Origin: a plasmid | Direction: 5' to 3' (one strand) | Sequence record: NZ_CP072340.1 | Length of the DNA: 64,000 nt | In this document: positions 12,917-30,047 of the stretch, piece by piece | Layout: each line of letters begins with the position of its first letter | Numbering within the stretch: the first letter of the stretch is position 1 | Position numbers and translations under genes: made by a program | The notes under the pieces: generated by a model | The model's input: the letters and a program-made list of their open reading frames with translations, nothing else | Databases searched by the model: none | Told to the model about the DNA's origin: nothing

Positions 12917-12934
12917 TACCTTTGCAAGCAAAGG
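12917..12934 (+). promoter_or_regulatory. TAccTTTG -7 box overlapping the 16-bp palindrome cctttgcaagcaaagg, about 25 nt upstream of intA1
   Basis: Read directly from the sequence. The same arrangement is conserved in element B at 30305-30322 (cctttgcatgcaaagg). Confidence 0.45.
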
Positions 12935-12958
12935 AAATTTAGAAAAAACGACAGAAAA

Positions 12959-14179: not shown

Positions 14180-14183
14180 CCTC

Positions 14184-15452
14184 ATGACACGTAGTACATT
14201 CAAGACACTCTTTTATATCAATCGCTCCAAAGAGAAAAAGAACGGCAAATGCCCGATTATGGGACGCATCACCATAGACGGTGAGCAGGTGCAATACAGC
14301 ACGGGCAAGGAAATCGCTCCCGAACTTTGGGACAGTCGTAAGGGACGATGCAAGGGTATAGGCGAAGAGACAAAGGAAATCAACCGCTATTTACAAAGCA
14401 AAGAGGAACAAGCCAAAGCGAAGTATCAAGAATTAGTCTGGCAACGTGGCTATATTACCGCTGAGTTGCTGAAGCGTGAACTCATGGAAGAAGACAAGCC
14501 CAAAGGTTTTCTTATGGAGGAAGCACGACTTTTCATAGAGGAAAAGCGTCCTTGCGTAGGAATAACGGTAGCCAAGCCGACCTTTGCCAACTACATCTAT
14601 GCCACACAACTCATTGAGGCTTATTTGCGTGAACGCTTGGGGCTGGAGGATATTCGCTACTCATCGCTTGACTATGGTTTCATCGAGGGGCTGGACTTCT
14701 ATCTTAAATCAGAGCGCAAACTCTCCCTTGCCACCATTCAGATTGTTGTCATTTTCCTGAGGAAACTCATCGGCATAGGTCAGCAGAAGAAGTATATCCG
14801 CATCGATCCGTTTGCAGACTACAAAGCAGAACTTCCACACCGCACAAGACGTTATCTCACTACGGAGGAACTACAACGAGTATTGCAAACACCCATCATT
14901 GACAGACAATTCGAGCGAGCAAGGCAACTATTCCTTTTCTGTGCCTTCACCGGTTTGGCTCGTGTAGATATGCAACGGCTCAAACCGAAGCATATCATCT
15001 ATAATGCTGACGGCACGGCGGAAATCCGCATCAAAAGGCAGAAAACAGACGTGGAAGCCATCATTCCACTCCTGCCCATTGCCACGCAAATCCTTTCGCT
15101 CTATATCAAGGACAAGAAAGCAGACGACTTGATATTCCCCAATCTCACAATAAGGAAAGCATCCTTTGCGTGTGTGAACATCGGGCAGATATGCCGGATA
15201 GAGAAAGGCTTGACCTTTCACATGGCTCGCCACACATTCTCAACCACGATTTGCCTTTCCAACGGCATCTCAATGGAAACGCTCAGCAAGATGCTCGGAC
15301 ACAGCAATATAGGTACGACACAAATCTACGGAAAGATAACCGACCACAAGATACAAGAGGATATGACCGCACTCACTGACAGGGAGCATTCTGTATTTGA
15401 GGGTTATTGTGAGTCGATAGCACGGCAGAACGTTCCATTGCAACAAGCATAA
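14184..15452 (+). CDS. Tyrosine recombinase / integrase (element A, second of tandem pair)
   Basis: ...HMARHTFSTTICLSNGISMETLSKMLGHSNIGTTQIYGKI catalytic motif; N-terminus MTRSTFKTLFYINRSKEKKNGKCPIMGRITIDG. Confidence 0.9.
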   Translation: MTRSTFKTLFYINRSKEKKNGKCPIMGRITIDGEQVQYSTGKEIAPELWDSRKGRCKGIGEETKEINRYLQSKEEQAKAKYQELVWQRGYITAELLKRELMEEDKPKGFLMEEARLFIEEKRPCVGITVAKPTFANYIYATQLIEAYLRERLGLEDIRYSSLDYGFIEGLDFYLKSERKLSLATIQIVVIFLRKLIGIGQQKKYIRIDPFADYKAELPHRTRRYLTTEELQRVLQTPIIDRQFERARQLFLFCAFTGLARVDMQRLKPKHIIYNADGTAEIRIKRQKTDVEAIIPLLPIATQILSLYIKDKKADDLIFPNLTIRKASFACVNIGQICRIEKGLTFHMARHTFSTTICLSNGISMETLSKMLGHSNIGTTQIYGKITDHKIQEDMTALTDREHSVFEGYCESIARQNVPLQQA

Positions 15453-15504
15453 AAAGGAAGTAATTACCAAACATTTATTATTCACGATTGAAAACCAAAC
15501 GATT

Positions 15505-15972
15505 ATGAAAGAGAACAACAAACAGGAACTTTCTTACTTTCGATTGAAATTAAGAAGTTATATGAGTGAGCATCACCCCGAAAAATTGCACGACACGGAG
15601 TTTATCACCACACGAGCAGACATGGCTCTCACTGCCTACTGCGATGCTGTGGCACAAGGTTTTTCGCACCTCGAAGCAGAGAACATAGCAAGTGAGGTGT
15701 TGTATCAAGGTTTGCACTTTTCCAAGTACGACACGCTTGTTTCTGTCTTAGAGAACGAGTTTGAGAGGGAACTGCCTGCACCACTCCCTGAGAAGCTTGC
15801 ACCCATATTGTTGTCGAATGAGGCTGTTCAAGCCACATTCGACAAGTTCGGTTTGACGGACACATTTGCTTCTGACGAGCAATACGACCGTCTTTACACC
15901 GAACTCACAGGCACGATTGTGCTGCTCATCGAGAGCAATCATTTGCCAATAATCGGTCAGACGGAGGGGTAA
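15505..15972 (+). CDS. Conserved hypothetical protein following the integrases (DUF1896-like; assignment from memory)
   Basis: 155 aa, about 85% identical to 32855..33325 in element B; no recognisable catalytic motif. Confidence 0.4.
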   Translation: MKENNKQELSYFRLKLRSYMSEHHPEKLHDTEFITTRADMALTAYCDAVAQGFSHLEAENIASEVLYQGLHFSKYDTLVSVLENEFERELPAPLPEKLAPILLSNEAVQATFDKFGLTDTFASDEQYDRLYTELTGTIVLLIESNHLPIIGQTEG

Positions 15973-16072
15973 GTCCAAAGGCGTTGTAAGCAAAGGCACA
16001 CGCAAAGTCCCTGATGCCGTTTCTTATCGTGCAAAGGTACAACGGCAGCTAATCTGCCCTGACAAGGTCAAG

Positions 16073-16120
16073 TCCTGCGGATGGAGAGAAGAATCTCCAC
16101 CGCAGGATTTTTCTTTTTCA
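16073..16120 (+). terminator. Rho-independent terminator (tcctgcggatggaga...tctccaccgcagga followed by tttttcttttt)
   Basis: Hairpin plus T-run read directly from the sequence. The homologous structure in element B is at 33427-33470. Confidence 0.7.
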
Positions 16121-16315
16121 AGGTGGTATTGCCATTTTCAATAGCCATGCGGTCGTATTCATCTCTCCCAACCTTGCAGAGCAGGGCTGCCGTAGAGAGT
16201 ATAGGCACGACAAGAATACGGCATACTCAGGCTCTTTGGACGCAAGGCGTAACAACCAACAACAGATAGGACTGACGATAATACGGACAATCTGTTGTTT
16301 GTACAATTTGTTGTC

Positions 16316-16424
16316 ATGACTATCTATTGTCAAAACTATATATCGTCAAAATAATCTATCGATAAAACTATCTATCGACACTTCGACATCTCGATTTGTC
16401 GAACTATCGAATTATCGATAAAAC
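16316..16424. repeat. Iteron-like array: about 6 tandem degenerate 16-bp units (ctatctattgtcaaaa / ctatatatcgtcaaaa / taatctatcgataaaa / ctatctatcgacactt ...)
   Basis: Read directly from the sequence. It sits between the terminator and the promoter of the Xis-like operon; a positionally equivalent 16-bp-phased TCGAAC-rich array is in element B at about 33675-33775. Confidence 0.5.
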
Positions 16425-16651
16425 AACAAAATAATAAAAGGAACGAGCCGGCACCTCATCTCATTACCGCAATAACACAGATGGATCTCCTTTGGTCTTT
16501 TCTCTTGTTTTCTCTCTATTTCCCTGCTTATCCTCATTTCTTGCAGCGGTGCTTCCGAGGGTTTACTTTTGCACTTGATAAGTACGGCAATGGACTGCAT
16601 AACAGTTTGTTTGCCGAGTAACAATAAAGTAATCAAAACAAAATTAAGGCA

Positions 16652-16921
16652 ATGAAACTCATTATCATCGACCGCAAAGCGTGGGAGCGACACCACTCCG
16701 AATTTGCAGACTTTATCCACAGTATCGAACAACTCATCGGCAATCCGCCCGAAACGGACGAATGGCTTGACAACGAAGCCGTGTGCAAGCGTTTGGGCAT
16801 CAGCAAACGTACCCTGCAATCATACAGAGATACGGGGAAAATCCCTTTCTCAATGATTGGACACAAGTGCTATTACAAGGAGAGCGACATCACGGAGTTA
16901 CTGAACGCAAACAATGAATGA
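16652..16921 (+). CDS. HTH_17 / excisionase-family small DNA-binding protein (Xis-like)
   Basis: DNEAVCKRLGISKRTLQSYRDTGKIPFSMIGHKCYYKESDI; the homolog in element B is at 34018..34296. Confidence 0.6.
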   Translation: MKLIIIDRKAWERHHSEFADFIHSIEQLIGNPPETDEWLDNEAVCKRLGISKRTLQSYRDTGKIPFSMIGHKCYYKESDITELLNANNE

Positions 16922-16924
16922 ACT

Positions 16925-17239
16925 ATGACAGAGAACGAAATCATTACACAGCAAGCCCCTCAGATGCAGATGTTTGCACAACTGATGGAGGGCATCTTAA
17001 AGAAACTGGAGCGTTATTGCGCTACCGCCCGTCCGATGCTGGGCGGAGAGGTTTACCTCACTGGCGAGGAGGTTTGCAGCCAATTACGGCTCAGCACACG
17101 CACGCTCCAAGAGTACAGAAACTTAGGAACACTTCCTTTCTACAAAATCGGAGGGAAGATACTTTACAAACAGAGCGACATACAAACAATGCTTGAAAGG
17201 CATTATAACGCAATACCCAAGAAATTATGGCAAGAATAG
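16925..17239 (+). CDS. HTH_17 / excisionase-family small DNA-binding protein (Xis-like, second copy)
   Basis: GEEVCSQLRLSTRTLQEYRNLGTLPFYKIGGKILYKQSDI; the homolog in element B is at 34300..34614. Confidence 0.6.
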   Translation: MTENEIITQQAPQMQMFAQLMEGILKKLERYCATARPMLGGEVYLTGEEVCSQLRLSTRTLQEYRNLGTLPFYKIGGKILYKQSDIQTMLERHYNAIPKKLWQE

Positions 17240-17733
17240 ATGAACAAAGGAAACAGCGTCTGGAACAAGCCCTTCGAGATATGGGCAATTATGGCGTTAA
17301 GCTCCGCAAGCCAGAAGAGTTGCCCGATTTTGATCAGCCCATAGATTATGAAGAGGAAAAGAAAAGATTTGAGCCTGTTAAAGTTGAGGAACAAAATGAC
17401 AAGGAGAGTCACAAGGACTATTCTCAACCGTCCAATCAAGAAACAGAGTTGTCACCAAAGGAAAGGGCTACTTCTACTGAAGAGAATCATCAACGAATGG
17501 GAAAAACAAGGGACAGGAAGCAATTATCCGAGTTTCAGGGGAAATATCTCCAGCCCTTTCGCAACAGCCACCGCAAAGCCGTGTATGTATCAGAGGAAAC
17601 TCAACGAAAGTTGGACTTCGTGGTGAGGAAAATCGGTGAGCAGGGAGCAAGCGTTTCAGGATATGTGGAGCAGGTGCTTCGAGAACATCTCGACCAATAC
17701 AAAGATGATGTGGAAAGATGGCGGAAACTCTGA
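17227..17733 (+). CDS. DUF3408-like protein (paralog of the CTn TraB/TraC-like proteins)
   Basis: It shares the N-terminal ..RSKLKEMGNYGV.. motif and a C-terminal ...Y(I/V)E(N/Q)(I/V)LREHL... block with 57681..58205 and 58199..58636. Confidence 0.5.
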   Translation: MARIDEQRKQRLEQALRDMGNYGVKLRKPEELPDFDQPIDYEEEKKRFEPVKVEEQNDKESHKDYSQPSNQETELSPKERATSTEENHQRMGKTRDRKQLSEFQGKYLQPFRNSHRKAVYVSEETQRKLDFVVRKIGEQGASVSGYVEQVLREHLDQYKDDVERWRKL

Positions 17734-17828
17734 AGTACTGCATTCCTCGAATGCAAGCCTACGCCGAGTTACTGTATTCAGTGAATGCAGTAACACGGCA
17801 TGGGCTTATAATCCCATTTTCTACATCA

Positions 17829-17925
17829 GCAAGGTGTGTCTTTGTCCGACAAACTACCGTTTGTCCCACAAAAACCCTTGCCCCGAAGGGGATTAAATCA
17901 CTCCAAAGTCGTGATTAGACAACAA
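17829..17925. other. Putative oriT of element A (inverted repeats gtctttgtccgacaaac / gtttgtcccacaaa, cccttgccccgaaggg hairpin, ..ctccaaagtcgtgattagac)
   Basis: About 85% identical to the region immediately upstream of the CTn mobA gene (56337-56432, opposite orientation) and to 34809-34905 in element B. It lies directly upstream of the mobA-like gene. Confidence 0.5.
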
Positions 17926-17943
17926 ACAAAACAAGTTAAGATT

Positions 17944-18369
17944 ATGCCTAAATTAGAAATAGCCAACAACAACCGCTACGGTCATCGTAGGATAGAAGAA
18001 GTGCCACGCTGGGACAGATGGGACACCCGTATGCCAGATGTGAAAGACCAACTGCGAGCCATCGACCTGTACAACAAGTCGGGGGCAGTGAGCAAGTCCG
18101 ATTTCGTTCGTGCCCGTATCCTTGGAGAGAGATTCAAGGTGATAATGGTGGATAAGTCCGCAGTTGAGTATTACCGCAAGCTCTCTGAACTCACAGCCCA
18201 AGTACATAAGATTGGCATAAACTATAATCAAGTCGTCCGCTTGATGCACCTTTATACGGCAGAGAAAAGTGTAAAAGCTTTGTTGCAGGAACTTATCCAA
18301 CTAACAAAAGAACTCACTACCTTCCAAGAGAAAGCAGTGAGTTTAACCATTGACTATCGGGAGAGATAA
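17944..18369 (+). CDS. MobA-like relaxosome accessory protein (MobC-family fold, PF05713-like)
   Basis: Homologous to the CTn mobA at 55914..56333 (..PRWDRWDTRMPDVKDQLRAIDLYNKSGA.SKSDFVRARILGE.FKVI.VDKS.VEYYRKLSELTAQVHKIG.NYNQVVR..). The start was set at the conserved MPKLEIANNN rather than the upstream extension that overlaps the oriT. Confidence 0.6.
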   Translation: MPKLEIANNNRYGHRRIEEVPRWDRWDTRMPDVKDQLRAIDLYNKSGAVSKSDFVRARILGERFKVIMVDKSAVEYYRKLSELTAQVHKIGINYNQVVRLMHLYTAEKSVKALLQELIQLTKELTTFQEKAVSLTIDYRER

Positions 18370-18385
18370 GGAATGTGCGATGGAA

Positions 18386-18871
18386 TTATATTCCCCCAAG
18401 CATTTTTTGCAGCAGATTGCCCGATGTTCGTGTTATTTGGAAGTCTATGGTTTGGTTTTCTACTGTTTTTATGTCGGCTGGCTTGAAACGACAAAGGGCT
18501 TCCTGACGCTCCAATGTGTCACGGACGGAAGAAAGGTCCTGTATCTGCCCTGCAAACGTTCCATAGGGAGATTGCAGATAAATCATTTGTCTGTTTACAT
18601 TGTCGGGGCGTTTATTCTCGAACTTTAATAAGATGGTTATATCTGTGCTGTCCGCTGGTGTTGCGGTTGTTGCTCCGTGTACGGTAGCCGTTCCCGAATA
18701 CACTTGTTTATAAGGCAGGAAATAGGCTACGGCTAACAGACAAAGCAAAACAGCTCCTATGGCAGTAATACCATAACGAACGAGAGATGAGGGTATCTGC
18801 CCCACGATGCTGCGTACTTTCTCGCTGCGGAGCTCAAAACTCCGTTCCTGTTTCTTTTCCTGGTTTTCCAT
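18386..18871 (-). CDS. Small membrane-anchored protein, possible bacteriocin-export accessory (short HlyD-like)
   Basis: One N-terminal TM segment (ITAIGAVLLCLLAVAYFL). It is immediately downstream of, and nearly abutting, the C39-ABC transporter gene on the same strand. Confidence 0.35.
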   Translation of the reverse strand: MENQEKKQERSFELRSEKVRSIVGQIPSSLVRYGITAIGAVLLCLLAVAYFLPYKQVYSGTATVHGATTATPADSTDITILLKFENKRPDNVNRQMIYLQSPYGTFAGQIQDLSSVRDTLERQEALCRFKPADIKTVENQTIDFQITRTSGNLLQKMLGGI

Positions 18872-18872
18872 A

Positions 18873-21086
18873 TCAGTTACCCAATTCTAATTGATTCTTC
18901 ACTAAGGCAAAATATTTACCACGTTTAGCAGTCAGATCCTCGTGTGTACCTACCTCTACAATTTTACCTTCATCCAAAACTACAATTTGGTCGGCATCGC
19001 GAACAGTGGAAAGGCGGTGTGCCACTACTACAACTGTTTTTCCCTTGTAGAACTCCGAGAGGTTTTCTGTAATGGCTCGTTCATTGTTGGCATCGAGGGC
19101 ATTGGTCGCTTCATCCAGAAAGACAAACATTGGATTCTTATAGACTACCCTTGCTATCAAAATGCGTTGTCGTTGTCCCTGACTGATGCCCTGTCCGTCC
19201 TGTCCTATCATCGTGTTGTAAGCCAAAGGCAGGGCTTCGATGTAGTCAGCGATGTTTGCCACACGGGCAGCATGGCGGATACGTTCGATGTCGGGTTCAT
19301 CATCCGATATGGCAATATTCCTCGCAATGGTATCGGAGAAGAGATACCCCTCCTGCATTACCGCACCGCATTGGCTTCGCCACCAGCCGAGATTATATTC
19401 ATTCAGATTGGCACTGCCGACTTGAACGCTTCCTTTCAGAGGTTCATAGAACCCCAACAAGAGTTTAACGAGTGTGGTCTTTCCGCTTCCACTCGCCCCC
19501 ACGATTGCGGTTACTTTGCCGTTAGGTATGGAGAGATTGATGTCTGAGAGAATATCTTTTGGGCTGTAGATGTCGTATTTGAAAGAGAGGTCTTTTATCT
19601 TGAGGGAATGTCCCTCAAGTGTTTCGTCAATGTAGGCATTCCGTGTTCTTTTCGCATTCTCCTCGTTAGTCTCTGTATGAATTTCGTTCATACGGTCAAG
19701 GCTGATGCTCACGTCTTGCCAAGAATAGATAAACTGAATGAGCTGTTCCACGGGGCTGTTGAGCTGTCCAATGATGTACTGCACTGCCAGCATCATACCA
19801 AGCGTCATATTGCCTTGTATGACAGAAGTTGCAGCAAAAACGGTAATCAAGATATTTTTTATCTCGTTGATGGTGATGCTTCCTGCCTGTTGTATTTGCT
19901 GAAGATTAAGACTTTGCAGATTGACCTTGAAAAGGTCGGCTTGCACGTCCTCCCATTCCCAACGCTTGCGCTGCTCACATCCCTGCAACTTGATTTCCTG
20001 CATACCACCTATGAGTTGGTAGGTAACGTTGCGGTTTCGCCCTGCCTGCTCGAAATATTTGTAGTCCAACTGCCTGCGCTTTTTGAGAAAAAGGATAATC
20101 CATCCGGCATAAAGCGATGTCCCCGAGAGGAATACAAGGAAGATGCCAAGATTATAGACTGCAAGGACGACACCGAAGACAAGGAAGGTGAAGAACGAGA
20201 ATAGCAGGCTCAGACTGCTTGAGGTGAGGAACTGCTCCACACGTCGGTGGTCTTCAATACGTTGCAAGAGGTCGCCCATCAGTTTGGTGTCGAAGAACTT
20301 CATCGGTAGTTTCATCAATTTGATGAAGAAATCCGAGATGAGCGAGATATTGATACGTGTGGAGATGTGCAGGAGTATTTTGGAGCGGATAAAGTCGATG
20401 GCGGTACGGCTGAAAAGTAGCATCATTTCTGCCAAGAGCACTAACCATACAAAGCCTATATCCTTTCCTCCTATACCTGTATCAACGATGGCTTGAGTGA
20501 GGAAGGGGAAAATGAGTTGCAGGAGCGAGCCGAGCAACAGACCGAGAATGAGTTGCGTAAAGAATCTCTTGTACTTTTTGAGATAGTTCCAAAGGAACTT
20601 CGCGCGGCTTTGAGTCGGTGCTGTTTCTGTATCGTTTTGAGCATAGAACTGTTCTGTCGGTTCAAGAAGAAGGGCGACACCTTTCTCCTCACCGTTGGTC
20701 TTAGTACTTACCCAATGCTCGCAGAACTCCTCTTGGGTATAGGAAACAAGTCCTTTGCCAGGGTCGGCAACATATACGGTATATTTTCCTTTTTTGTGCT
20801 TTTTTATTTTATAGACAACAACAAAATGATTTTGATTCCAATGAACAATGCAGGGCAAAGGAACTTCAAATGCAAGTGTATCAAAACTTAATCGACCTCC
20901 AACAGTCTTGAAACCGATAGTTTCTGCAGCCTTACTGATACCAAGCAAAGAAACTCCCTCTCGATTTAATGAACAAACTGTTCTAATTGAATCAATATTA
21001 AAATCGCGACCATAATGCTTAACTATCATTGCTAAGCAAGAAGGTCCACAATCTTTTGCGTCACGTTGTCTAACTAAGGTGTACAT
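18873..21086 (-). CDS. Peptidase-C39-domain ABC transporter (double-glycine leader-cleaving bacteriocin exporter)
   Basis: N-terminal C39 Cys motif DCGPSCLAMIVKHYG; 6-TM core; Walker A GASGSGKTTLVKLL; ABC signature LSQGQRQRILIAR; Walker B VFLDEATNALD. Confidence 0.9.
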   Translation of the reverse strand: MYTLVRQRDAKDCGPSCLAMIVKHYGRDFNIDSIRTVCSLNREGVSLLGISKAAETIGFKTVGGRLSFDTLAFEVPLPCIVHWNQNHFVVVYKIKKHKKGKYTVYVADPGKGLVSYTQEEFCEHWVSTKTNGEEKGVALLLEPTEQFYAQNDTETAPTQSRAKFLWNYLKKYKRFFTQLILGLLLGSLLQLIFPFLTQAIVDTGIGGKDIGFVWLVLLAEMMLLFSRTAIDFIRSKILLHISTRINISLISDFFIKLMKLPMKFFDTKLMGDLLQRIEDHRRVEQFLTSSSLSLLFSFFTFLVFGVVLAVYNLGIFLVFLSGTSLYAGWIILFLKKRRQLDYKYFEQAGRNRNVTYQLIGGMQEIKLQGCEQRKRWEWEDVQADLFKVNLQSLNLQQIQQAGSITINEIKNILITVFAATSVIQGNMTLGMMLAVQYIIGQLNSPVEQLIQFIYSWQDVSISLDRMNEIHTETNEENAKRTRNAYIDETLEGHSLKIKDLSFKYDIYSPKDILSDINLSIPNGKVTAIVGASGSGKTTLVKLLLGFYEPLKGSVQVGSANLNEYNLGWWRSQCGAVMQEGYLFSDTIARNIAISDDEPDIERIRHAARVANIADYIEALPLAYNTMIGQDGQGISQGQRQRILIARVVYKNPMFVFLDEATNALDANNERAITENLSEFYKGKTVVVVAHRLSTVRDADQIVVLDEGKIVEVGTHEDLTAKRGKYFALVKNQLELGN

Positions 21087-21152
21087 TTATGATATATAAA
21101 ACTATACTAAAAATACTATACTAAAGTAAATATTAAATTTGCAAAAATATTA

Positions 21153-23489
21153 TCACTGCAAATTCAATCGTTTCTGATTGCTTTCATTGGTGTTCAATCT
21201 TCTAAATGTATCCTTAAATCCATTGAATGTATATTTAATGGTCAGTAAAAGAAAGCGACTATCGAAATCAGGAGTTGTTTGTACTTTGATATTATCTATG
21301 AATACATTTGTTTTTGATATAGATTTATGTAATAAATCGTTACCTCTCAAGATAATTTGTAAACGATTATCTTTGAAGAAATTTTGCCGTATCCAAAAAG
21401 ATAAACCATACTTAGGTGATTCCAATACTCCCAAGAAACCATTTTTTGAAGAGTAAGATAAATCTATAGACGCCATCATTTGCTTAGTAATGTCAAATTG
21501 ATTGACCAAGGTAAATGCAATATTTGGATTTCTAGGTGCATAAGTATCTAAGTATTTAATTTTTGTTGGAATATAACGAAATGAAGCATTATAAGCAAAT
21601 CTATATATACCGAATTTATCTGAATAACTTGCATTAAACAACCATGTATTGTAATCTACATTGACGGGAGAATTCAATAGAGCTCCATTTAATTCAGAAT
21701 TTTCGGTGAACTTCCACAAAACAGCATTAGCGTCATGTATGTATCTTCCCTGTAAGACAAATTTATTCTTCCATACCATAGATAAGGAATAAATGTATCT
21801 ATCATTAGATTTAAGAGATGAATTACCTTTTTCATATAAATAAGGATTTATATAATGCAAAAGAGGGGAAATATCCCTAAACATTGGTCGTGAATTCTGA
21901 GTAATAATACTTCCAATGAATAGCAAATCGGGATTTATCTGCCATTGGGCTGTTATACGAGGAAAGAGTTTAAAGTATGTATCAGTAATACTATTTGTTT
22001 TATTTTGCTCATATTCAGAATGAAAAATGCTTCCTCTAACCCCTGCGGTGATAAAGAGTTTATTCCATTTTTGATTTATAGTTGCAAATAAACTGAGTTC
22101 ATCATCTTGAAGATTACTCGTTATATTATAGAATGGAGTCGTAGTATTCTCAAAAATGTAATTTGAATAGCCTTTGTTCAGAATAGAATTTCCTTGAAAG
22201 CCCATATTTAGAGAGAAACCCTTTTTCGAGTTGTAGTCGTACTCTATCTTTGTATTAAATGCGTTATAGTCATTTTTACCATTTATCCAAGAACGGTTTT
22301 TACTGTTTGATACTAAATCTATCTCTGATTTTGTTTTAGCGTAGAAATAACCGCCAGAAACAGATAGTTGTTGCTTATCTGTCATTGTATAATTTACCAA
22401 CAAATCGGCATTGGCAGAAATATTACGACTTCTTTCATCTTGATGAGTGTTGGAATATAGTGTATTCAGACCATATTCATAGTTATACTCATCTCCTTGG
22501 GTATTCGCTTTCTTATTGGAGATATTTATATCACCCTGAAATGTTATATTAAATTTTTGATTGGGTCTGTAACTGAAACTTTCGACAATATGGTGAGCAG
22601 GCTTGGAAAGAATTTCATTATTGTAAGAGATGGAAGACCGTTCCGTTTTCCCTTTAGGGCTTAATACATCGTATTGATTGGTACCTGTGTTATCTTCATT
22701 GAGGTATGAAAAATTATAAGACAATAAATTATCCCATTTCTTTTTTGATAAAGAAATTCTCAATACATCCTCTTCTGTATACCGCCGTCCGAACAAAGAA
22801 TTATGTTCCACCTGAGCAGAAAAGTAATCTGTTAATTGTTGGTTTGTTGTAATAGAAATAATACAACCATATTGAGCCGAATATTTAGCTGGTGGATAGT
22901 AATTAACATTTACCGTTTTTATTTGTTCAGGACGGAGCGTACCGATTCTATCGTATGATTTTTGTTCTACTCCATTCAATATATACAAAGGTGTGCCTCC
23001 TGATATAGGTACAACTCTTCCACCGGTCGCCAACATTCCTGGAAGAAAAGCAAGAACATCTGCAACTTCGGGTAATTTTTTTAACTCTGATTTTGAGACG
23101 TCTATTTCAAATGTTCCTTCTGAAACTTTATAGACTGCTCTTTTTCCTTTAACTATAACCTCTTGCAACGTGTTGGAATTCGGTTCTAACTGGATAACAG
23201 TTGGAAGAGGAATAGAGACTCGTGCTTGTTTATATCCCATAAATCTGACAGCAATAAATTTACCATCAGTTCCTTCTTTGCTTATATTGAACACCCCTTT
23301 TGAATCAGTTGTTGTACTTTTTAAAATTTCTCCTTCTTCTGTAATTAATAGTACGGTGGCATAGGGTAAAGGTTCTTGTACCTCATCAACTACGGTAGCT
23401 GATAACATCAATGTATCTTGAGGTACTATTGCTGCTTGAGATTGAAAACTGAAAACAGAAATTAAAATTAAAATTAAAACACGAAACAT
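21153..23489 (-). CDS. TonB-dependent-receptor-like outer-membrane protein with N-terminal carboxypeptidase-regulatory-like domain
   Basis: Signal peptide MFRVLILILISVFSFQSQA. CarbopepD_reg-like segment (ATVLLITEEGEILKSTTTDSKGVFNI), then a plug-like and a long beta-strand-rich region. Confidence 0.55.
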   Translation of the reverse strand: MFRVLILILISVFSFQSQAAIVPQDTLMLSATVVDEVQEPLPYATVLLITEEGEILKSTTTDSKGVFNISKEGTDGKFIAVRFMGYKQARVSIPLPTVIQLEPNSNTLQEVIVKGKRAVYKVSEGTFEIDVSKSELKKLPEVADVLAFLPGMLATGGRVVPISGGTPLYILNGVEQKSYDRIGTLRPEQIKTVNVNYYPPAKYSAQYGCIISITTNQQLTDYFSAQVEHNSLFGRRYTEEDVLRISLSKKKWDNLLSYNFSYLNEDNTGTNQYDVLSPKGKTERSSISYNNEILSKPAHHIVESFSYRPNQKFNITFQGDINISNKKANTQGDEYNYEYGLNTLYSNTHQDERSRNISANADLLVNYTMTDKQQLSVSGGYFYAKTKSEIDLVSNSKNRSWINGKNDYNAFNTKIEYDYNSKKGFSLNMGFQGNSILNKGYSNYIFENTTTPFYNITSNLQDDELSLFATINQKWNKLFITAGVRGSIFHSEYEQNKTNSITDTYFKLFPRITAQWQINPDLLFIGSIITQNSRPMFRDISPLLHYINPYLYEKGNSSLKSNDRYIYSLSMVWKNKFVLQGRYIHDANAVLWKFTENSELNGALLNSPVNVDYNTWLFNASYSDKFGIYRFAYNASFRYIPTKIKYLDTYAPRNPNIAFTLVNQFDITKQMMASIDLSYSSKNGFLGVLESPKYGLSFWIRQNFFKDNRLQIILRGNDLLHKSISKTNVFIDNIKVQTTPDFDSRFLLLTIKYTFNGFKDTFRRLNTNESNQKRLNLQ

Positions 23490-23537
23490 TACAACAAGAA
23501 AGTTATAGAGATATAAAGTTGTAAATAAAAATAAAAT

Positions 23538-23571
23538 GTCTGACTATGAACGAAAGAGCATAGTCAGACAC
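23538..23571 (-). terminator. Rho-independent terminator of the bacteriocin precursor gene (11-bp perfect stem tgtctgactat/atagtcagaca; minus-strand T-tract TTTTATTTTTATTT follows)
   Basis: Read directly from the sequence, immediately after the stop codon at 23580. Confidence 0.6.
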
Positions 23572-23579
23572 AGAAACTC

Positions 23580-23756
23580 TTAAGGCTTTGTTGTTACTCT
23601 GTCAATGATGACAGTCCCATCATCCTTAATCGTTGTTGTAATGGTGGTTGTTGAACCATCTGCATTGATAATGGTTTTAGTTGCAGTTACATCACCGCCA
23701 CCATTGATAAAACCCATTTCGTCTTTTGAAAAGACTTCTAAAGCTAATGCTTTCAT
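23580..23756 (-). CDS. Double-glycine-leader bacteriocin/RiPP-like precursor peptide (58 aa), not in the ORF track
   Basis: My own translation of the minus strand: MKALALEVFSKDEMGFINGG|GDVTATKTIINADGSTTTITTTIKDDGTVIIDRVTTKP. It has a classic GG leader (..E..F.K.EM..I.GG) and a terminator immediately downstream. It shares a strand with, and lies upstream of, the C39-ABC exporter. Confidence 0.6.
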   Translation of the reverse strand: MKALALEVFSKDEMGFINGGGDVTATKTIINADGSTTTITTTIKDDGTVIIDRVTTKP

Positions 23757-23955
23757 AACTAAATAGAATAAAGTTTATACTTGGCTCGGTATTCTCCGAA
23801 CCGTTAATTAAAATTTGGATGTCAGAGTTTCGCACGATGTGCATATTAACAGACATTCAATTGCAATATTACGAAAAGAAAACGAGAAAAACAAATTTTT
23901 CGCCACGTTTTTTGCGATTTCCATTATTTTGTGTCGTTTTTCATAATGAAATGAC

Positions 23956-23963
23956 TATCTTTG
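23956..23963 (+). promoter_or_regulatory. TAtcTTTG -7 box about 150 bp inside the right end of element A, reading outward toward the junction
   Basis: Read directly from the sequence. The same box is at 44997-45004 in the same relative position in element B. Confidence 0.3.
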
Positions 23964-24074
23964 CAACTATAAATTAAGTGTTCATTGAAGCATTGCAAAA
24001 TAAAGAAAGGGAAAGAAACTCGCTCGTTTCCATCTCGTAACCCATTTACCCTTTATTCATTCTTATTTTATTGA

Positions 24075-27000
24075 TTATCTGAAAGATACAATATTCTTGA
24101 ATCTTTTACGGGCGTAATCCGTTGCGATGAGCATTTTTGCCCTTCCCTCGCTCTCACTCAGAGGTGCTCGTCCCAAGATTGTGGCATCTCCACTCTTGGC
24201 AAACTCCATCAACTTGCCGATAAAAACCTCCTGCTCGGGCGTGGGCGGTATGTTATGCAGTATCTCGTTCTTCTCGGGGCGGTCGATACCGATGTCCTTG
24301 GCTGTGCGAAAGTCGCAAATCTCCGCATAGAACGAGGCAAGCTCCGGCACTTTGATAAAGGTGCGGAACCGCTCTTTCTGAATGATGTCGTTTGTGATGG
24401 AGAACTCATAGTCAGTTGATTTCTTGGCAAAGACTGCTGCCCAAGCATCAAAACTGTTGATACCCTGTTTTTCTAATGCCTGCGGACGGAGATACTTGAA
24501 CAGAAGATACAACTCCGTCAGGCTATTGGAAATGGTCGTTCCCGAAAGGAAAGTGGCTCCCAAATCCTTGCCGGACCTCTCCTGTATGGTACGAATAGCA
24601 AAGAGCATGTTTAAGGCACGCTGTGAACCATCAGGATTACCCAAGCCCGACACACGGTCGTGGCGGGTATTGAACATCAGGTTCTTGAATTGATGGCTTT
24701 CATCTACAAAGAGGTGGTCGATACCCATCATCTTGAAGTCTACAGCATCGTCCTTTCTTTCGGCGATGCTGTCCTGTATGTTCTGCAACTTGGCTTCAAG
24801 CGTCTGCTTGCGTTTTTCCAGTCCTTTGAGCATGCCACGGGAGATGTCTCTTCCTTGTTGCCGCAACACTTCGAGATTTTCTTCCACGGAGTCCAGTTCC
24901 TTTTGCATAATCGCCTCCTGTATCTCGAAGGCCTGCGGTATCATGCCGAACTGTTCATGCGTAAGTATTATGCAGTCCCAGTCGTTGTTCTTGATGTCGT
25001 TGAAAATGCGTTGTCTGTTCTGCTTGTTGAAATCATTCTTGCCCGGATATAAGATCCTCGCATTGGGATAAGCCTTTCTAAAGGTGTCGGCAATGTCAAA
25101 GACGTTTGCCTTCAGTCCGATAATCATTGGCTTGTTTGCCAGTCCCAATCGCTTCATCTCGTAGGCTGCCGTACACATGATGAGTGTCTTGCCCGCCCCC
25201 ACCTCGTGATCACAGATGCCTCCTCCATTGGTCTTCAGCATCCATACGGCATCCTTCTGGCTCTTGTAGAGGTCGGCAATGCCCAACCGTTTGAGGTCAA
25301 GGTCGGGAAAAGTCTGATGTGTGCCGTCAAAGTTCGGTCGCACAAAACAGTTGAAAAGGCGGTTGTACCTGTCGGAGAGTTGTTGTTTGAAGGTATCGGG
25401 TGTGCGTCCGAGCCAATCGACAAAGCCCTGTCTGATTTCCTCAATCTTGGCATTCGCCATCTGGATGGCATGTCCGTCCCTTACTTTGATGGTCTTGGTC
25501 TCTCCCGTAACCTTGTCCGTCACTTCCTTGCTCTTGTTGATGTCGGGAATGGTATTGTGCAGGGCATGCTTTAAGAGATTGATACCGTCATAGCGGCGGA
25601 ACTCACCCTGTACGGCATACTTGTGCCAGATATTGGCATTCTTATGGTCACATACAATGCTGTACTCGTCCATGTTGGAATGGTAGGATACACCAATATC
25701 CGTCCCGAAAAACTCCGAGGCAAACCTGCCATAGACTTTGGCAGGTATCCAGCGTTCACCGAGATTAAAGTCAAGGTCTGCAAATGGAATGGGTGTTGGC
25801 GTGGCTGCACGCAAAGCGGCAAGGCTCTGTTTGGCTTCCTCATGGTCTGGATGGTCCAAGAGCCACGACTCGATACGCTCCGCCTTTTCTATTACATTGC
25901 CCGAAATGAACTTGTCCGCCACTTCGTAGGCATTCTCTTCGGGATTGTAATAGATGCGACCTTCCAAGGAAGAAATGATGTCGCTTTCCTCCATATCAGG
26001 TAAAAGCGAACTCATGTAGTCAAGTTCCACCGCGCCGTACTTGTTGAGCGATGCACCCAGTGCCTCCATCGGGTCTGCGGCAACGGTCAGTTCCGTGGTG
26101 GAAAATGCCGTAGGATGGTCAAAGATGTCCGCCTTGATGTACCTGCCGTTCTCGGAGCGTTCCAAGAACAGCATTTCCACGCCTGTAGCATCCATCTTGA
26201 TGATGTCGGTGTTAGCCTTTTGGTTAAAGTAGCCCCAGCGTGCAACATAATCATCATACAGGTGGTTGAGTCTGCTGCGGTCCTCCTTGTCTTCTGCATG
26301 GTTCTCTGCCTCGTAGTCATAGAGACGATGATAGCACTCCCGTATCTCGATATAGCTTTTTAGTCGGGAAAGCTGCGCATACGGCAAGTCCATCGGATTA
26401 AAGGTCGGATGTCGCTTTAAGTCAGAAAGAAACCCCACCTGCCCTTTCTGCACGACAATGGAGCCGTCTCTTAAGTGGGAGTCCGGCGATGAGAGAAAGG
26501 GACGGGGTGAGGAATCAAACTCCTTTTTCACCTCCGCTATCGGTTGTGGTTTTCGCTCTTCGGCTTCATTCATGAAGTCAAAGAGAGATGGCTCACGATA
26601 TGAGGGGGAGATGATCTTCTTATTGCCCTTTCCTCTGGTTTTACGCCCTGGAGTGACTGTAGGTTGTTTTTCGCTCTCCTTTCCTGCTTTGTTTTCCGGT
26701 TGCTTTTGAGCTGTCTGCACCTGCGATTTTGGAGCTTCTTTAATCTCGCTGTTCACGCGCGTTACTTCCTGCGTCCAGAGATTGTATTCCTCCGGAGCGA
26801 ACAGTGAAGGCTGCTCCGTTTCCTGTCGCTCGTCCATGCCGTTCATCACCGGATGATGGTCATCGTCGAAATAGACCATCTGTCCGTTCATCTCCCGTGG
26901 AGACTCCACATCGGTACGGATTTCCTTCACATCCTGCTCATACTGACGGTGAAGAGTCAATGTAGGCACGCCTTCAGGAGCAGGCTCATAGGAAATGTGG

Positions 27001-28808: not shown

Positions 28809-28901
28809 AATAATATGCTTTAATTAAAGAAAAGTGAAAAAGGTCAGAAGATACTCGTGCTACCTCCCGACCAATTCTGTTCCTCTTTGTTTCTGTCGGG
28901 A

Positions 28902-30047
28902 TTATCTCTCTCGTTGTTTTCCTTTCCTATTCTCAAACTCAAATGCAGTGGTACAGTCGTCCTGCAATACCAGTCGGGCATTGAACTTCTTACCAGCCTT
29001 GCTGGTCAAGCCATTGAGGACGGGCGTCCGACCTGTGGTTATCAAATCTCGGATATTGCCCTCTGTAAGAAGCGTTCCACAGACCTCACGAAATATATGA
29101 AAGTCGCAGCCCTCGTGTCTGCATTTGGCGACTTTGGTATAAATGCCCACACTTTCGTTACCACATTTAGGGCAGTGGTAGGTGGGATAAGACTTCTGCA
29201 CCTGTGGAGCAAGGGCAAGGAGTTCCTCGCAGATAGTGCCGACGTATGAGTTGATGCCTTGCGCGAACTTCTCCGCCGGCATTTGTCTCGCCTCGATAGC
29301 GGCAAGAGCCAGTTCCCAACTGCCAGTCATCTCCGCATTGGCAATCTTCTTGTCCTTGACAATCTCATAGACTGACAAGCCTTTTTCGGTAGGTATGATA
29401 GCTTTCTTATTCCTACGGATATAGTCACGGAGAATAAGCGTTTCGATAATGTTGGCACGGGTTGCAGGTGTGCCGATACCGCACTCTGCCATCGCCTTCT
29501 TGCTTTCAGCATCTTCGACATCTTTCCCAGCGTTCTCCATTGCAGAGAGCAGAGTTGCTTCTGTGTAGAGTGGTTTCGGCTTGGTCTTATGCTCGGTAAT
29601 CTCTGCATTGAGAAGTGACAGGACTTCACCTTCCGTTAAGCTGGGCAGGGCGGATAAGGTCTGTTCCTCGTTTTCCTTTCCATTTTCATTTTGAGTGTCA
29701 GCGCCTTGCTGCACGTCTTTCCAACCCAAAGAGATTTGTCGGCACGCCTTCCAAGTAAAGGTATTGGTGCCGTCCGTGAACTTCACCTGCATACGTTCTT
29801 CCTCTGAGTCGGGAGAGAAAGCCTCTAAAAAGCGAGTTACTATCATTTGATAGATGGTCGCCTCGTCCACCGACAAGCCCGAAGGGGTTTCTCCTGTGGG
29901 GATAATAGCGTGGTGGTCGGTAACTTTTGCATTGTCCACAGAATGGCGGTTAAGCGGATTGGATAGCGCCTTGTCTATCTTGCGAAGCAGGACGGGTACT
30001 TCCTCAAAGACATCCTCACTGATGTATCGGCTGCCTGTACGGGGATA
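28902..30047 (-). pseudogene. topB: 3' portion of the DNA topoisomerase III gene (resumes at ...YPRTGSRYISEDV; C-terminal Zn-ribbon CPKCG...C..C), separated from its 5' part by element B
   Basis: My own translation upstream of the listed ORF (28902..29939) continues in frame to the junction: I-N-Y-P-R-T-G-S-R-Y-I-S-E-D... This matches the topo IA active-site block that the 5' fragment (45137..46096) lacks. Confidence 0.85.

Follow-up and report, generated by a model that had tools for sequence, protein, structure and literature searches.

A mobile Bacteroidales cassette joins a double-glycine peptide and its C39 exporter to a TonB-dependent-transporter-type outer-membrane protein

The window analyzed here is a 64,000-nucleotide stretch of plasmid NZ_CP072340.1. 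Four intact genes on its minus strand form a cassette encoding a 58-aa peptide precursor (23580..23756), a 778-aa outer-membrane protein of the TonB-dependent-transporter type (21153..23489), a 737-aa C39 peptidase-containing ABC exporter (PCAT; 18873..21086) and a 161-aa accessory protein (18386..18871). A sequence-only reading of this DNA had claimed the small ORF and, downstream on the same strand, an outer-membrane protein, a C39 exporter and a small membrane protein. All were found there, and the translation of the ORF agrees exactly with the one quoted earlier.

The search for homologous double-glycine peptides that this reading proposed returned 43 homologue clusters from Prevotella and Bacteroides, about 9/43 of which are frameshifted variants. 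The peptide class had not been recognized earlier, and with 23 matches among 1.84 billion representatives the precursor family is rare and undescribed. The precursor has a dN/dS of ~0.14 with saturated synonymous divergence. Compared in the same frame with metagenome locus L008 it gave a pS of 0.67 and a pN of 0.20, and the core portion alone gave 0.87 and 0.14, respectively, against the B. fluxus-type locus. Strong purifying selection acts on the reading frame, core included. Synteny of the precursor with the outer-membrane protein and exporter is kept across Prevotella and Bacteroides. Because the homologue clusters, purifying selection and conserved synteny exceed chance, the 58-aa ORF is a real gene.

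The precursor is divided into a 20-aa leader, MKALALEVFSKDEMGFINGG (23697..23756, minus strand), and a 38-aa core, GDVTATKTIINADGSTTTITTTIKDDGTVIIDRVTTKP (23583..23696, minus strand; 3935.3 Da, pI 4.7). The leader carries F-12, S-11, E-8, M-7, I-4, G-2 and G-1, which is the double-glycine pattern of hydrophobic residues at -4, -7 and -12, an acidic residue at -8 and a Gly-Gly end, and it is predicted to be cut after Gly-Gly. In an alignment of 28 precursor sequences, frameshifted variants included, M1 and G19 are invariant, while K2, L6, E7, V8, S10, K11, D12, E13, M14, F16, I17, N18 and G20 are at least 90% conserved. The core contains 12 Thr and no Cys, and has no His, Cys or Tyr that could serve as metal ligands. 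Its family motif is K-T-I-x-x-[PA]-D-G-x-x-x-I-I-T-x-T-I-K-D-D-G-x-V-x-x-D-R. An all-beta structure is predicted for the core, with three strands and tight PDG and DDG turns, and the mature peptide would be acidic, hydrophilic and non-amphipathic.

Neither LanM/LanBC, a thiol oxidoreductase nor any other tailoring gene was found in the cassette using Pfam, NCBIfam and the ORFs. As the core is Cys-free and the cassette has no tailoring gene, the peptide belongs neither to the lanthipeptides nor to the disulfide peptides of the bacteroidetocin type, the same exclusion drawn earlier from the missing Cys. For class I/II lanthipeptides the likeness is confined to the leader, which weakly matched the type 2 lantibiotic leader model TIGR03893 (E 3.5e-4, under the model cutoff). 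Bacteroidetocins (class IIf) were rejected since the C39 exporter is the sole shared feature. A class II microcin of the MccV type was rejected since the 161-aa accessory protein has no HlyD match in Pfam and no immunity candidate was found among the cassette ORFs. One homologue, P0033, is named by NCBI as a VCBS or bacterial cadherin-like repeat protein; the window peptide has no such Pfam or NCBIfam match. The precursor family profile also matched repeat units of a giant Cadherin_4/Big_9 protein, which we read as similar beta-strand and turn motifs rather than family membership. The label bacteriocin is unproven for this acidic, hydrophilic peptide with no immunity gene.

The functional unit runs past 23756 to about 23949, the added stretch comprising a promoter-like element and the 5' UTR. 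Bacteroides promoters have the consensus -33 TTTG / -7 TAnnTTTG. The promoter-like element (23864..23895, minus strand) consists of TTTG at 23895-23892, a 20-nt spacer and TAATATTG at 23871-23864, a putative -7 box with one mismatch to the consensus. The block is kept in the related loci L013 and L014 and also in the divergent L008, where the substitutions fall outside it. A small 5'-UTR hairpin with a 7-bp stem, GGTTCGG / CCGAGCC (23783..23802, minus strand), lies ~25 nt before the start codon. RNAalifold gave seven pairs, 3/7 with compensatory double changes in L008 and L010. The hairpin is not present in the B. fluxus-type locus, and no Rfam family matches it. Directly past the precursor stop codon is an intrinsic-terminator-like hairpin with a U tract (23521..23571, minus strand). 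The perfect-stem terminator described earlier was recovered as a perfect 13-bp stem at 23571..23536 with a U-rich tract behind it that reaches about 23521, with an energy of -22.5 kcal/mol (z = -7.5 against shuffles). Hairpins of differing sequence occupy the equivalent position in L014, L005, L008, L010 and L002. This hairpin is a putative attenuator or mRNA stabilizer separating the precursor from the machinery genes.

The 778-aa protein matched CarbopepD_reg_2 (PF13715) and OMP_b-brl_3 (PF14905) in Pfam, while Plug and TonB_dep_Rec gave no match; its sister in L008 has a weak Plug match. It is laid out as a signal peptide (residues 1-19), an N-terminal CarboxypepD_reg-like extension (26-100), a flexible linker with a TonB-box-like segment, a small plug (121-215), a barrel (222-756) and a conserved 20-aa tail. 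The AlphaFold model (pLDDT 78.7) has a barrel with an N-terminal plug of ~95 residues, as in TonB-dependent transporters, whose barrels have 22 strands; the DSSP strand count is ambiguous. Foldseek aligned the model over its full length with PhuR, FyuA, ChuA, OprC and Cir (E 1e-16 to 6e-19, probability 1.0). The model thus bears out the earlier comparison with TonB-dependent receptors and assigns the protein a TonB-dependent-transporter fold. The segment LQEVIVKGKR (residues 108-117; 23139..23168, minus strand) falls in the low-pLDDT linker that connects the N-terminal extension with the plug. Even in relatives at ~20% identity, L108 never varies and V111 and V113 hardly do, and L-x-[EDG]-[VI]-x-[VI]-x-[GA] is present in all exporter-linked outer-membrane proteins examined. 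LQEVIVKG is therefore a putative TonB box ahead of the plug. About 10% of the sampled relatives of the outer-membrane protein adjoin a C39-type exporter.

The exporter has the Pfam domains Peptidase_C39 (E 6e-33), ABC_membrane and ABC_tran. In NCBIfam it scored best against ABC families for bacteriocin and NHLP export, in each case under the equivalog cutoff. The C39 domain spans residues ~3-126 (20709-21080) and carries the catalytic Cys13 and an H-F-V-V...A-D-P motif. The precursor therefore has both a fitting leader and an adjoining exporter with C39 catalytic residues, in keeping with the proposal that this exporter serves a double-glycine peptide. The 161-aa accessory protein has no Pfam match. 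It is predicted to have a cytoplasmic N-terminus, one transmembrane helix (~28-51) and a beta-rich periplasmic part of ~110 aa. Its AlphaFold model was poor (pLDDT 52.6) and was left out of the analysis. Among its 714 homologue clusters, one is named HlyD family secretion protein by UniRef. In hhalign it was aligned over 57 columns with the N-terminal end of an HlyD-like protein of 445 aa whose gene lies beside another exporter (probability 54%, E 1.2e-4). Its length leaves no space for a coiled-coil hairpin, and it looks like a hairpin-less remnant of an HlyD-type adaptor, comprising the N-terminal part only. No gene for a TolC-type partner was found in the cassette.

Beside the cassette, on the plus strand, lies a mobile-element backbone (14184..18369) with an integrase, DUF1896, two HTH_17 genes, DUF3408 and a MobC_2/MobA-like gene; the HTH_17 calls were taken from annotated homologous sister loci and the other domains from Pfam. 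The same backbone stands beside alternative cassettes in L095-L100 at 83-92% DNA identity, and L099 carries CTnDOT-type Tra genes. Using blastn, a swappable block was delimited at 20960..23949 (minus strand); it takes in the promoter, the precursor and outer-membrane genes and the 5' end of the exporter. Homology to L098 extends over 24038-23939, breaks off and begins again from 20960; it picks up again at 20542 against L096 and at 21070 against L100. L013 is collinear with the window from 23949. Between the window and L098 the exporter membrane domain is 95% identical, the ATPase domain 92.5% and the accessory protein 90%, whereas the outer-membrane proteins share 23% identity. The C39 domain is 71% identical to that of L098 and 42.5% to that of L096. 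Across L095-L101, identity to the window is about 80-90% for the membrane and ATPase domains of the exporter and for the accessory protein, while the sister elements differ in peptide, tailoring enzymes, outer-membrane protein and C39 domain. The locus is an exchangeable cargo cassette on a Prevotella-type/Bacteroidales conjugative or mobilizable backbone. With the exporter body conserved and both the C39 domain and the outer-membrane protein divergent, it follows that the outer-membrane protein and the leader-reading domain travel with the peptide. The accessory protein, ~90% identical between cassettes of unrelated peptides, is therefore not a peptide-specific immunity protein. The peptide, its outer-membrane protein and the C39 domain could also be inherited together through adjacency and recombination within the conserved stretch of the exporter gene, with no need for functional specificity.

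An outer-membrane protein beside such an exporter had been regarded as unusual. Instead, the order TonB-type outer-membrane protein, exporter and ~160-aa accessory recurs in Bacteroidales, where it accompanies a wide variety of double-glycine peptides as well as radical-SAM enzymes, and the stop of the outer-membrane gene often overlaps the exporter start. The recurring order and the overlap suggest one machine. In metagenome loci L008/L009 and L010, three such outer-membrane genes surround a single exporter. L008/L009 have two distinct double-glycine peptides, each immediately ahead of one outer-membrane gene, one pair in L008 being only 2 nt apart; in L010 one intact peptide immediately precedes an outer-membrane gene. 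Next to the B. fluxus-type locus lie genes for a second double-glycine peptide, for a histidine kinase that senses the periplasm and for an OmpR-type response regulator. This two-component system was not found in the mobile-element copies, nor in L008 or L010. In Prevotella sp. B2-R-102 an insertion sequence lies between the peptide and the outer-membrane gene, and the exporter is seemingly missing in L005.

The arrangement is already in print. Exporter and outer-membrane protein loci without an adaptor (BGC6-9) were noted earlier (PMC10352776), PF14905 outer-membrane proteins occur near Bacteroidetes graspetide loci (PMC8939145), and an export role has been predicted for PF14905 proteins (PMC10352776, PMC8939145). 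Going by layout, these loci have the same machinery as the window; the window cassette differs in that it encodes no tailoring enzyme and its peptide core is Thr-rich and free of Cys. Neither study showed the TonB-dependent-transporter fold or reported co-swapping of the C39 domain or tandem pairs. Bacteroidetocins, going by PMC6671954 and PMC8546649, are Bacteroidales double-glycine peptides of similar size with the same exporter type and no immunity gene, and their genes are often unannotated. Unlike the window peptide, they contain two or more Cys and come with a multi-pass membrane protein and, in most cases, a thiol oxidoreductase, and their loci have no outer-membrane gene (PMC6671954).

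MccV, with its exporter CvaB, adaptor CvaA and TolC, shares with the window a double-glycine leader, a C39 exporter and a small unmodified peptide in a Gram-negative cell. In contrast to MccV, the window has no full-length adaptor, no encoded or implied TolC dependence and no immunity gene, and its operon encodes a TonB-dependent-transporter-type protein. MccV-type peptides are Gly/Ala/Ser-rich and hydrophobic whereas the window peptide is acidic and Thr-rich. A secreted product with an exporter and a dedicated TonB-dependent receptor is known from the HasA/HasR hemophore, methanobactin/MbnT and some lasso-peptide clusters. HasA/HasR and MbnT have a known ligand (heme, copper) and further uptake parts, while neither ligand-binding residues nor an inner-membrane importer is evident in the window. 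Gram-positive class II bacteriocin regulons consist of an inducer peptide, histidine kinase, response regulator, bacteriocin, ABC exporter and accessory protein. The B. fluxus-type version is similar in having two double-glycine peptides, a kinase, a regulator, an exporter and a small accessory gene. It differs in that the kinase is a classical periplasm-sensing one and the regulator is OmpR-type, not AgrC/LytTR, and these regulatory genes are missing from the window's mobile copy.

Our leading reading, held tentatively at somewhat less than even confidence, is export in two steps: the exporter would deliver the peptide to the periplasm and the TonB-type protein would act as the outer-membrane gate, as for Oar and PopC of Myxococcus. 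Transcription would start at the cassette's own promoter, and the hairpin after the precursor would leave precursor mRNA in excess of machinery mRNA. The C39 domain would recognize the 58-aa precursor by its leader, cut after Gly-Gly, and the 38-aa core would be pumped across the inner membrane. Given the short hairpin-less accessory protein and the lack of an encoded TolC-type partner, the core is probably freed into the periplasm rather than passed through a continuous tunnel. The matched outer-membrane protein would then be an energized gate that lets the peptide out, and outward gating, by emptying the producer's periplasm, would double as self-protection. The precedent is Oar of Myxococcus xanthus, which is needed for secretion of PopC, a protein that reaches the periplasm before crossing the outer membrane (PMC6434023). 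The 778-aa protein is likened to Oar by domain layout (CarboxypepD_reg extension, TonB box, plug and barrel). PopC, however, is a 50-kDa protease and not a C39-type exporter substrate, and Oar is not encoded beside its cargo (PMC6434023). The ~10% exporter-linked share among sampled relatives counts against the two-step reading, as do an acidic, hydrophilic peptide unlike known class II bacteriocins and microcins and the lack of an immunity gene. The conserved putative TonB box fits import equally well. To our knowledge, all characterized TonB-dependent transporters import, Oar excepted.

Of the roles suggested earlier for the outer-membrane protein, export channel and immunity or decoy receptor, both were kept as candidates, and a third was added, a receptor by which the cell takes up the peptide it has secreted. 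Uptake is a possible though unlikely alternative, with HasA/HasR and methanobactin/MbnT as parallels. The exporter would secrete the peptide, another route would take it across the outer membrane, and it would return as a quorum or element-to-element signal or as a ligand carrier. The transporter fold and conserved TonB-box-like segment agree with this, as do the peptide genes placed immediately before outer-membrane genes twice in one locus, the divergence of the outer-membrane protein in step with the peptide, the sensory genes and second peptide of the B. fluxus-type loci, and a peptide unlike typical toxins. Yet an inner-membrane importer, a periplasmic binding protein and a cytoplasmic sensor are all missing from the cassette; the mobile-element copies, L008 and L010 have no two-component system; a separate outer-membrane exit would still be required; the core offers no metal ligands; and the coupling of the outer-membrane and exporter genes better suits one machine. 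We consider it improbable that the outer-membrane protein instead confers peptide-specific immunity, as a decoy or as a resistant form of the target or receptor, with the peptide leaving by TolC, vesicles or lysis. It is the sole peptide-specific non-catalytic component and no other immunity candidate is present. Some Bacteroidales toxin genes adjoin resistant orthologues of their outer-membrane targets. Bacteroidales toxins do act on outer-membrane proteins, as with bacteroidetocins on BamA (PMC8546649), but bacteroidetocin producers manage without immunity (PMC6671954). Moreover, a resistant copy leaves the sensitive chromosomal copy in place, so an element-borne decoy would be recessive, and the TonB-box-like segment and plug favor an active transporter over a passive decoy.

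Still less probable is a peptide that stays in the envelope as a subunit of its matched outer-membrane protein, for instance by complementing the plug or controlling the gate by strand pairing. Such a role would suit the unusually small plug, the predicted all-beta core with its tight turns and the adjacent genes, including the pair 2 nt apart in L008. It has no precedent, the terminator after the precursor implies peptide in excess of outer-membrane protein, and the same machinery serves Cys-rich precursors beside radical-SAM enzymes, which look classically secreted. A spurious or decaying small ORF in a remnant locus is an explanation already largely refuted, and we give it hardly any weight. 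Frameshifted clusters, the insertion sequence in Prevotella sp. B2-R-102 and the apparent loss of the exporter in L005 could be read that way, but the low dN/dS at saturated dS, a core conserved from Prevotella to Bacteroides, the conserved promoter-like element, UTR hairpin and terminator, and four intact genes in the window speak against it.

If two-step export is correct, the acidic, Thr/Ile-rich peptide, a predicted three-strand beta structure, would, once outside the cell, most likely act on related Bacteroidales without the element. Bacteriocin-like antagonism is ranked only slightly above signaling, at which the kinase, regulator and second double-glycine peptide of the B. fluxus-type locus hint. 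New here are the swapping of peptide, outer-membrane protein and C39 domain together, and the tandem peptide/outer-membrane pairs. We propose that the cassette is a self-contained secretion unit for a ribosomal, unmodified peptide, carried as cargo by the mobile element.

The 58-aa precursor ORF that the sequence-only reading had picked out at 23580..23756 on the minus strand translates exactly as described there, giving a 20-aa double-glycine leader (MKALALEVFSKDEMGFINGG) followed by a 38-aa Thr-rich core (GDVTATKTIINADGSTTTITTTIKDDGTVIIDRVTTKP). Judged by its sequence, the small ORF is a genuine gene. Codon comparison with L008, a related metagenome locus, gave a pS of 0.67 and a pN of 0.20 (ratio ∼0.14), indicating purifying selection in this frame. 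Comparison of the core only with the Bacteroides fluxus-type gene gave a pS of 0.87 and a pN of 0.14, and the leader was less conserved than the core. The same reading had suggested looking for homologous double-glycine peptides, and these were found. Homologues formed 43 clusters from Prevotella nigrescens, other Prevotella and B. fluxus. When 1.84 billion representatives were searched exhaustively with a profile, 23 matches at E <= 1e-3 were obtained, which added only a few divergent members. With so few matches in so large a set, the precursor family is real but rare. About nine homologue clusters (P0034-P0042) are frameshifted inside or just before the Thr-rich run, with a common alternative frame (...SLRLRLRMMEQSWLTK). 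The frameshifts could stem from misassembly of a repetitive, ACN-rich stretch, or the genes could be truly inactivated.

The precursor gene is framed by its own putative expression signals. A conserved promoter-like block of the Bacteroides type (TTTG, 20 nt, TAATATTG) is located at 23895..23864 on the minus strand. A scan for sigma-70-type promoters performed no better than shuffles. The 5'-UTR contains a hairpin with a 7-bp stem at 23783-23802. Compensatory changes were observed between this stem (GGTTCGG/CCGAGCC) and its counterparts in two metagenome loci, L008 (∼7700-7720, AGTTTGG/CCAAACT) and L010 (∼2860-2880, GATTCGG/CCGAATC). An Rfam search of 18300-24100, including this hairpin, produced zero matches. 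Directly 3' of the stop codon is the perfect-stem terminator claimed previously, at 23571..23536 on the minus strand, with a 13-bp stem and a U-rich tract (-22.5 kcal/mol, z = -7.5 against shuffles). It escaped a generic terminator scan only because the loop is over 8 nt. The post-stop hairpin was present at every locus examined, with a different sequence each time.

The predicted mature peptide has 38 aa, a mass of 3935.3 Da and a pI of 4.7, with 12 Thr and 0 Cys. The family motif, K-T-I-x-x-[PA]-D-G-x-x-x-I-I-T-x-T-I-K-D-D-G-x-V-x-x-D-R, can be read as three short β strands with two tight turns between them. The family profile also matches repeat units in P0178 (2936 aa, Cadherin_4/Big_9; 18 units), P0186 (2155 aa, Ig-repeat; 12 units) and P0187 (179 aa, PEP-CTERM; 3 units). 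The match to Cadherin_4/Big_9 repeats looks like shared strand-and-turn motifs, and the core thus resembles one strand-turn-strand unit of bacterial Ig/cadherin-like repeats. Membership of the VCBS or cadherin families, as implied by the NCBI name of one homologue (P0033, 'VCBS domain-containing protein'), was rejected, as there was no such Pfam or NCBIfam match. The general Bacteroidales O-glycosylation motif is D-[ST]-[AILMTV]. This motif is missing from the core, so O-glycosylation does not explain the richness in Thr. Without Cys and without Lan enzymes the peptide is not a lanthipeptide. Nor is it a bacteroidetocin. Bacteroidetocins have at least 2 Cys and are encoded with a multi-pass membrane protein and a thiol oxidoreductase but no OMP gene (PMC6671954), whereas the window peptide is Cys-free and its cassette has an outer-membrane protein (OMP) gene. 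The earlier exclusion of lanthipeptides and disulfide-type peptides therefore held. The peptide family is new, and the core is a rare, acidic, Thr-rich β-type peptide and a new candidate for a bioactive molecule.

The precursor gene in the window (23580-23756) was also compared with that of L013 from Prevotella sp. B2-R-102 (6703-6879). The two cassettes are otherwise near-identical (OMP 98.7% identical), and the precursors differ by 4 nonsynonymous and 0 synonymous changes, T26N, T38I, R53K and T56I, all in the core. Metagenome alleles vary at the same core positions. The changes between the window and L013 may hint at recent diversification, with numbers too small for a test.

The downstream genes were as the sequence-only reading had listed them, all on the same strand: a 778-aa OMP, a 737-aa C39 ABC exporter and a small protein of 161 aa with one predicted transmembrane helix. 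The OMP (21153..23489, minus strand) contains CarbopepD_reg_2 and OMP_b-brl_3 domains. No match to it was found among solved structures by sequence. Its AlphaFold model, built from 13 input sequences (pLDDT 78.7), aligns full length to the solved TonB-dependent transporters PhuR, FyuA, ChuA, OprC and Cir, with E down to 6e-19 and a probability of 1.0. The strand count is ambiguous when read from the DSSP string without coordinates. The protein comprises a signal peptide, a CarboxypepD_reg-like N-terminal extension (residues 26-100), a disordered linker with the motif LQEVIVKGKR, a small plug (121-215), a barrel (222-756) and a conserved 20-residue tail. Relatives at ∼20% identity and every exporter-linked OMP examined keep the linker motif, which is TonB-box-like by position and sequence. 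The fold match and this motif make the earlier label of TonB-dependent-receptor-like protein correct, and the demonstration that the OMP partner is a TonB-dependent transporter by predicted fold is added by this analysis. Residues beyond the terminal aromatic are unusual for an outer-membrane barrel. Here the last strand (...YTFNGF) is followed by ∼20 polar, basic, conserved residues (757-778; 21153-21218), of which four (R764, N766, N768 and R774) do not vary within the clade; the last of them, R774, remains invariant in relatives at ∼20% identity. This tail would be in the periplasm.

The exporter (18873..21086, minus strand) has Peptidase_C39, ABC_membrane and ABC_tran domains. Its C39 domain retains Cys13, the catalytic residue, and the HFVV...ADP motif, and the nearest NCBIfam families are bacteriocin and NHLP export ABC proteins. 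The accessory protein (18386..18871, minus strand) had no Pfam domain. Its 714 homologue clusters are mostly from oral and gut Prevotella. A BLAST search for adaptor likeness was negative, and hhalign against a 445-aa HlyD-like protein encoded beside another exporter gave a weak match of the N-terminal 57 columns only (probability 54%, E 1.2e-4). The AlphaFold model (pLDDT 52.6) was too poor for a fold search. At this length the protein appears too short to have room for the coiled-coil hairpin by which adaptors reach TolC. The cassette is not a canonical class II microcin system, being without a full adaptor and without an immunity gene.

The genes flanking the cassette encode MobC_2, DUF3408, two HTH proteins, DUF1896, two integrases and a helicase. 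This backbone recurs beside accessory-protein homologues in Prevotella sp. C561, in metagenome and genome contigs whose accessory homologue is named by NCBI for P. histicola and in other contigs, and the copy in the sister element L099 bears CTnDOT-type Tra genes. Sister elements carry different cargo at the identical site of the shared backbone. The cargo of L098 and L099 consists of TetR, KAS-III, a Cys-rich double-glycine peptide, a radical-SAM enzyme and a 763-aa OMP. That of L095-97 and L101 consists of an aminotransferase, a 69-aa double-glycine peptide, an LRR protein, a C39/VKOR protein, a Porph_ging protein and an 864-aa OMP. Identity to the window in L098 and L096, respectively, was 89.7% and 80.7% for the whole exporter, 71% and 42.5% for its C39 domain, 95% and 86% for its membrane domain, 92.5% and 94% for its ATPase domain, 90% and 89% for the accessory protein, and 23% and 24% for the OMP. 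DNA homology with L098 spans a 100-nt left-boundary block (24038-23939) and then resumes from 20960, ∼42 codons into the exporter gene; with L096 it restarts at 20542, past the C39 domain. These breakpoints delimit a cargo block at ∼23949..20960 that contains the promoter, the precursor, the OMP and the leader-reading end of the exporter. The stable part is the membrane and ATPase engine of the exporter plus the accessory protein. As read from these alignments, the locus is a mosaic cassette on a conjugative-element backbone, which is also added by this analysis. Cassette swapping suggests a route by which peptide diversity arises on these elements.

Upstream of the cassette, 24075-33325 looks like nested mobile elements and includes a 1577-aa methylase/SNF2-type ORF. 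A topoisomerase ORF in this region matches only positions 208-409 of the domain model and has thus apparently lost its N-terminal part. Two integrase genes in tandem (30212-32833) form a second pair similar to that at 12836-15452. Plasmid searches with DNA and protein found nothing. In L013, which is 97% identical to the window in the rest of the locus, a DDE_Tnp_1 insertion sequence (6979-7959) lies between the terminator and the start of the OMP gene. The insertion point corresponds to window 23506-23513, where two blastn segments share 8 bp in window coordinates, as would be expected of a target-site duplication. The machinery genes are probably cut off from the peptide promoter by this insertion. 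In another Prevotella contig (JBKXKG010000004.1, L005) there is no called gene in the ∼2 kb after the OMP gene, the expected exporter site (12573-14527), and the peptide is preceded by a run of N. Possible causes are loss of the exporter and masking of the region.

A metagenome scan with the OMP alignment produced 78 distant relatives. In 8/78 the next gene downstream encodes an exporter, and its start codon often overlaps the stop codon of the OMP gene; the genes upstream encode double-glycine peptides and radical-SAM enzymes, and a ∼160-aa accessory gene follows the exporter in 4 of these 8. A scan of one genome per species with the OMP alignment returned only two Prevotella loci, its patterns being so narrow that B. 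fluxus was missed. Nothing informative emerged from the gene neighbourhoods of the nearest OMP relatives that are not next to an exporter. In the Thr-rich clade, identity is 83-89% among exporters, 50-64% among OMPs and 38-60% among peptides. The order in the metagenome loci L008 and L009 is a Cys-containing peptide, a 774-aa OMP, the Thr-rich peptide, a 784-aa OMP, the exporter, the accessory protein and a 797-aa OMP. The leader of the Cys-containing peptide (MKHSKMNLTTIVPPEDVLLEELSDVKAG, followed by SAFRICLKGCCSG...) ends in AG, and its gene is separated by 2 nt from the extra OMP gene. Two unrelated peptides are thus each encoded directly 5' of their own OMP gene. The L010 contig opens with a 761-aa OMP gene, upstream of which no peptide was identified; next come the Thr-rich peptide, a 784-aa OMP, the exporter, the accessory protein and, after a truncated double-glycine-like ORF, a split OMP gene. 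From these gene orders, several OMP genes share one exporter, the extra ones being at 4952-7457 and 13258-15651 in L008 and at 240-2525 and 8451-10875 in L010. Loci with multiple OMPs and a single exporter, in which some OMP genes have their own preceding peptide, are a further addition of this analysis. In the B. fluxus-type loci a second double-glycine peptide, MNTTELEKLSENEMAQIKGG followed by EGHWEMINGQWAWVETYDLGDEDYENT, precedes the Thr-rich one (L002 9727-9870, L001 9730-9870, also L003 and L004). Its core, EGHWEMINGQWAWVETYDLGDEDYENT or the variant EEWIYINGTWVCIDPFTLGDENYENT, is Trp-rich and acidic. The peptide pair is divergent from a histidine kinase (L002 8213-9595; 2 TM helices, ∼170-aa periplasmic sensor) and an OmpR-type regulator (7517-8194), a layout that resembles an inducer-peptide regulon.

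Given the leader, the C39 domain and the ABC engine, it is safe to infer that the precursor would be cleaved after GG and exported across the inner membrane. For the outer-membrane step we tentatively favour exit of the peptide through the matched TonB-type OMP, a reading we hold with a little less than even confidence. The cassette is without a full adaptor and without TolC, and in many cassettes the OMP and exporter genes are closely coupled. The OMP travels with the peptide, as does the leader-reading C39 domain, and in the two-peptide locus each peptide directly precedes its own OMP gene. A further argument for export is Oar, a TonB-dependent transporter with the same layout of N-terminal extension, TonB box, plug and barrel, which PopC needs in order to move outward from the periplasm (PMC6434023). 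Export out of the periplasm would at the same time protect the producer, and this would account for the absence of an immunity gene. The accessory protein is ruled out as an immunity factor, since it is ∼90% identical between cassettes with unrelated peptides.

The main rival, that the OMP is an uptake receptor for the cell's own peptide, we consider rather unlikely. In its favour, all characterised TonB-dependent transporters other than Oar are, to our knowledge, importers, the peptide is acidic, hydrophilic and not bacteriocin-like, and the B. fluxus-type locus adjoins a sensor kinase, a response regulator and a second double-glycine peptide. Against it, neither an inner-membrane importer nor a sensor is encoded in the cassette, and the two-component system is absent from the mobile copies. 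More doubtful still is a matched ligand-receptor pair on a conjugative element, whose carriers would secrete the peptide and then take it up again, or detect it, by way of a dedicated TonB-dependent gate. The suggestion that the OMP is an immunity or decoy factor is quite improbable, the peptide being a bound subunit very improbable, and the locus being a decaying remnant scarcely credible. The ORF, the hairpin and the three genes of the sequence-only reading stand, and its interpretation is only partly supported.

That reading also regarded an OMP in an export locus as unusual, which did not hold. The combination of exporter and OMP without adaptor is recurrent and was already noted in Bacteroidales RiPP clusters by a 2023 genome mining study, which asked whether the mechanism is distinct (PMC10352776), and an export role has been predicted for PF14905 OMPs near Bacteroidetes graspetide loci (PMC8939145). 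Literature searches on exporters and TonB-dependent export in Bacteroidota turned up no experiments on a locus of this kind, and a search on PF14905 returned one paper, which concerns phosphorus and plant-associated Bacteroidetes. The window cassette is the minimal form of an under-studied, already noticed architecture. It comprises one unmodified peptide, one TonB-type OMP, one exporter and one short accessory protein in ∼5.6 kb with its own promoter-like element. As the smallest natural version of the arrangement, it is a clean test bed.

How leader-cleaved peptides cross the outer membrane in Bacteroidota was left open by the bacteroidetocin papers, and the question is directly testable with a ∼5.6 kb construct. 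If the OMP exports the peptide, TonB-dependent export would be a general branch of peptide secretion and not a Myxococcus oddity. If it imports the peptide, private peptide-receptor pairs would be spread by mobile elements among gut and oral Prevotella. Should the ligand-receptor pair prove true, different cassettes would be private, non-cross-reacting channels for element-to-element or kin signalling, and this would be the first Gram-negative ribosomal-peptide signalling system to rely on TonB-dependent uptake.
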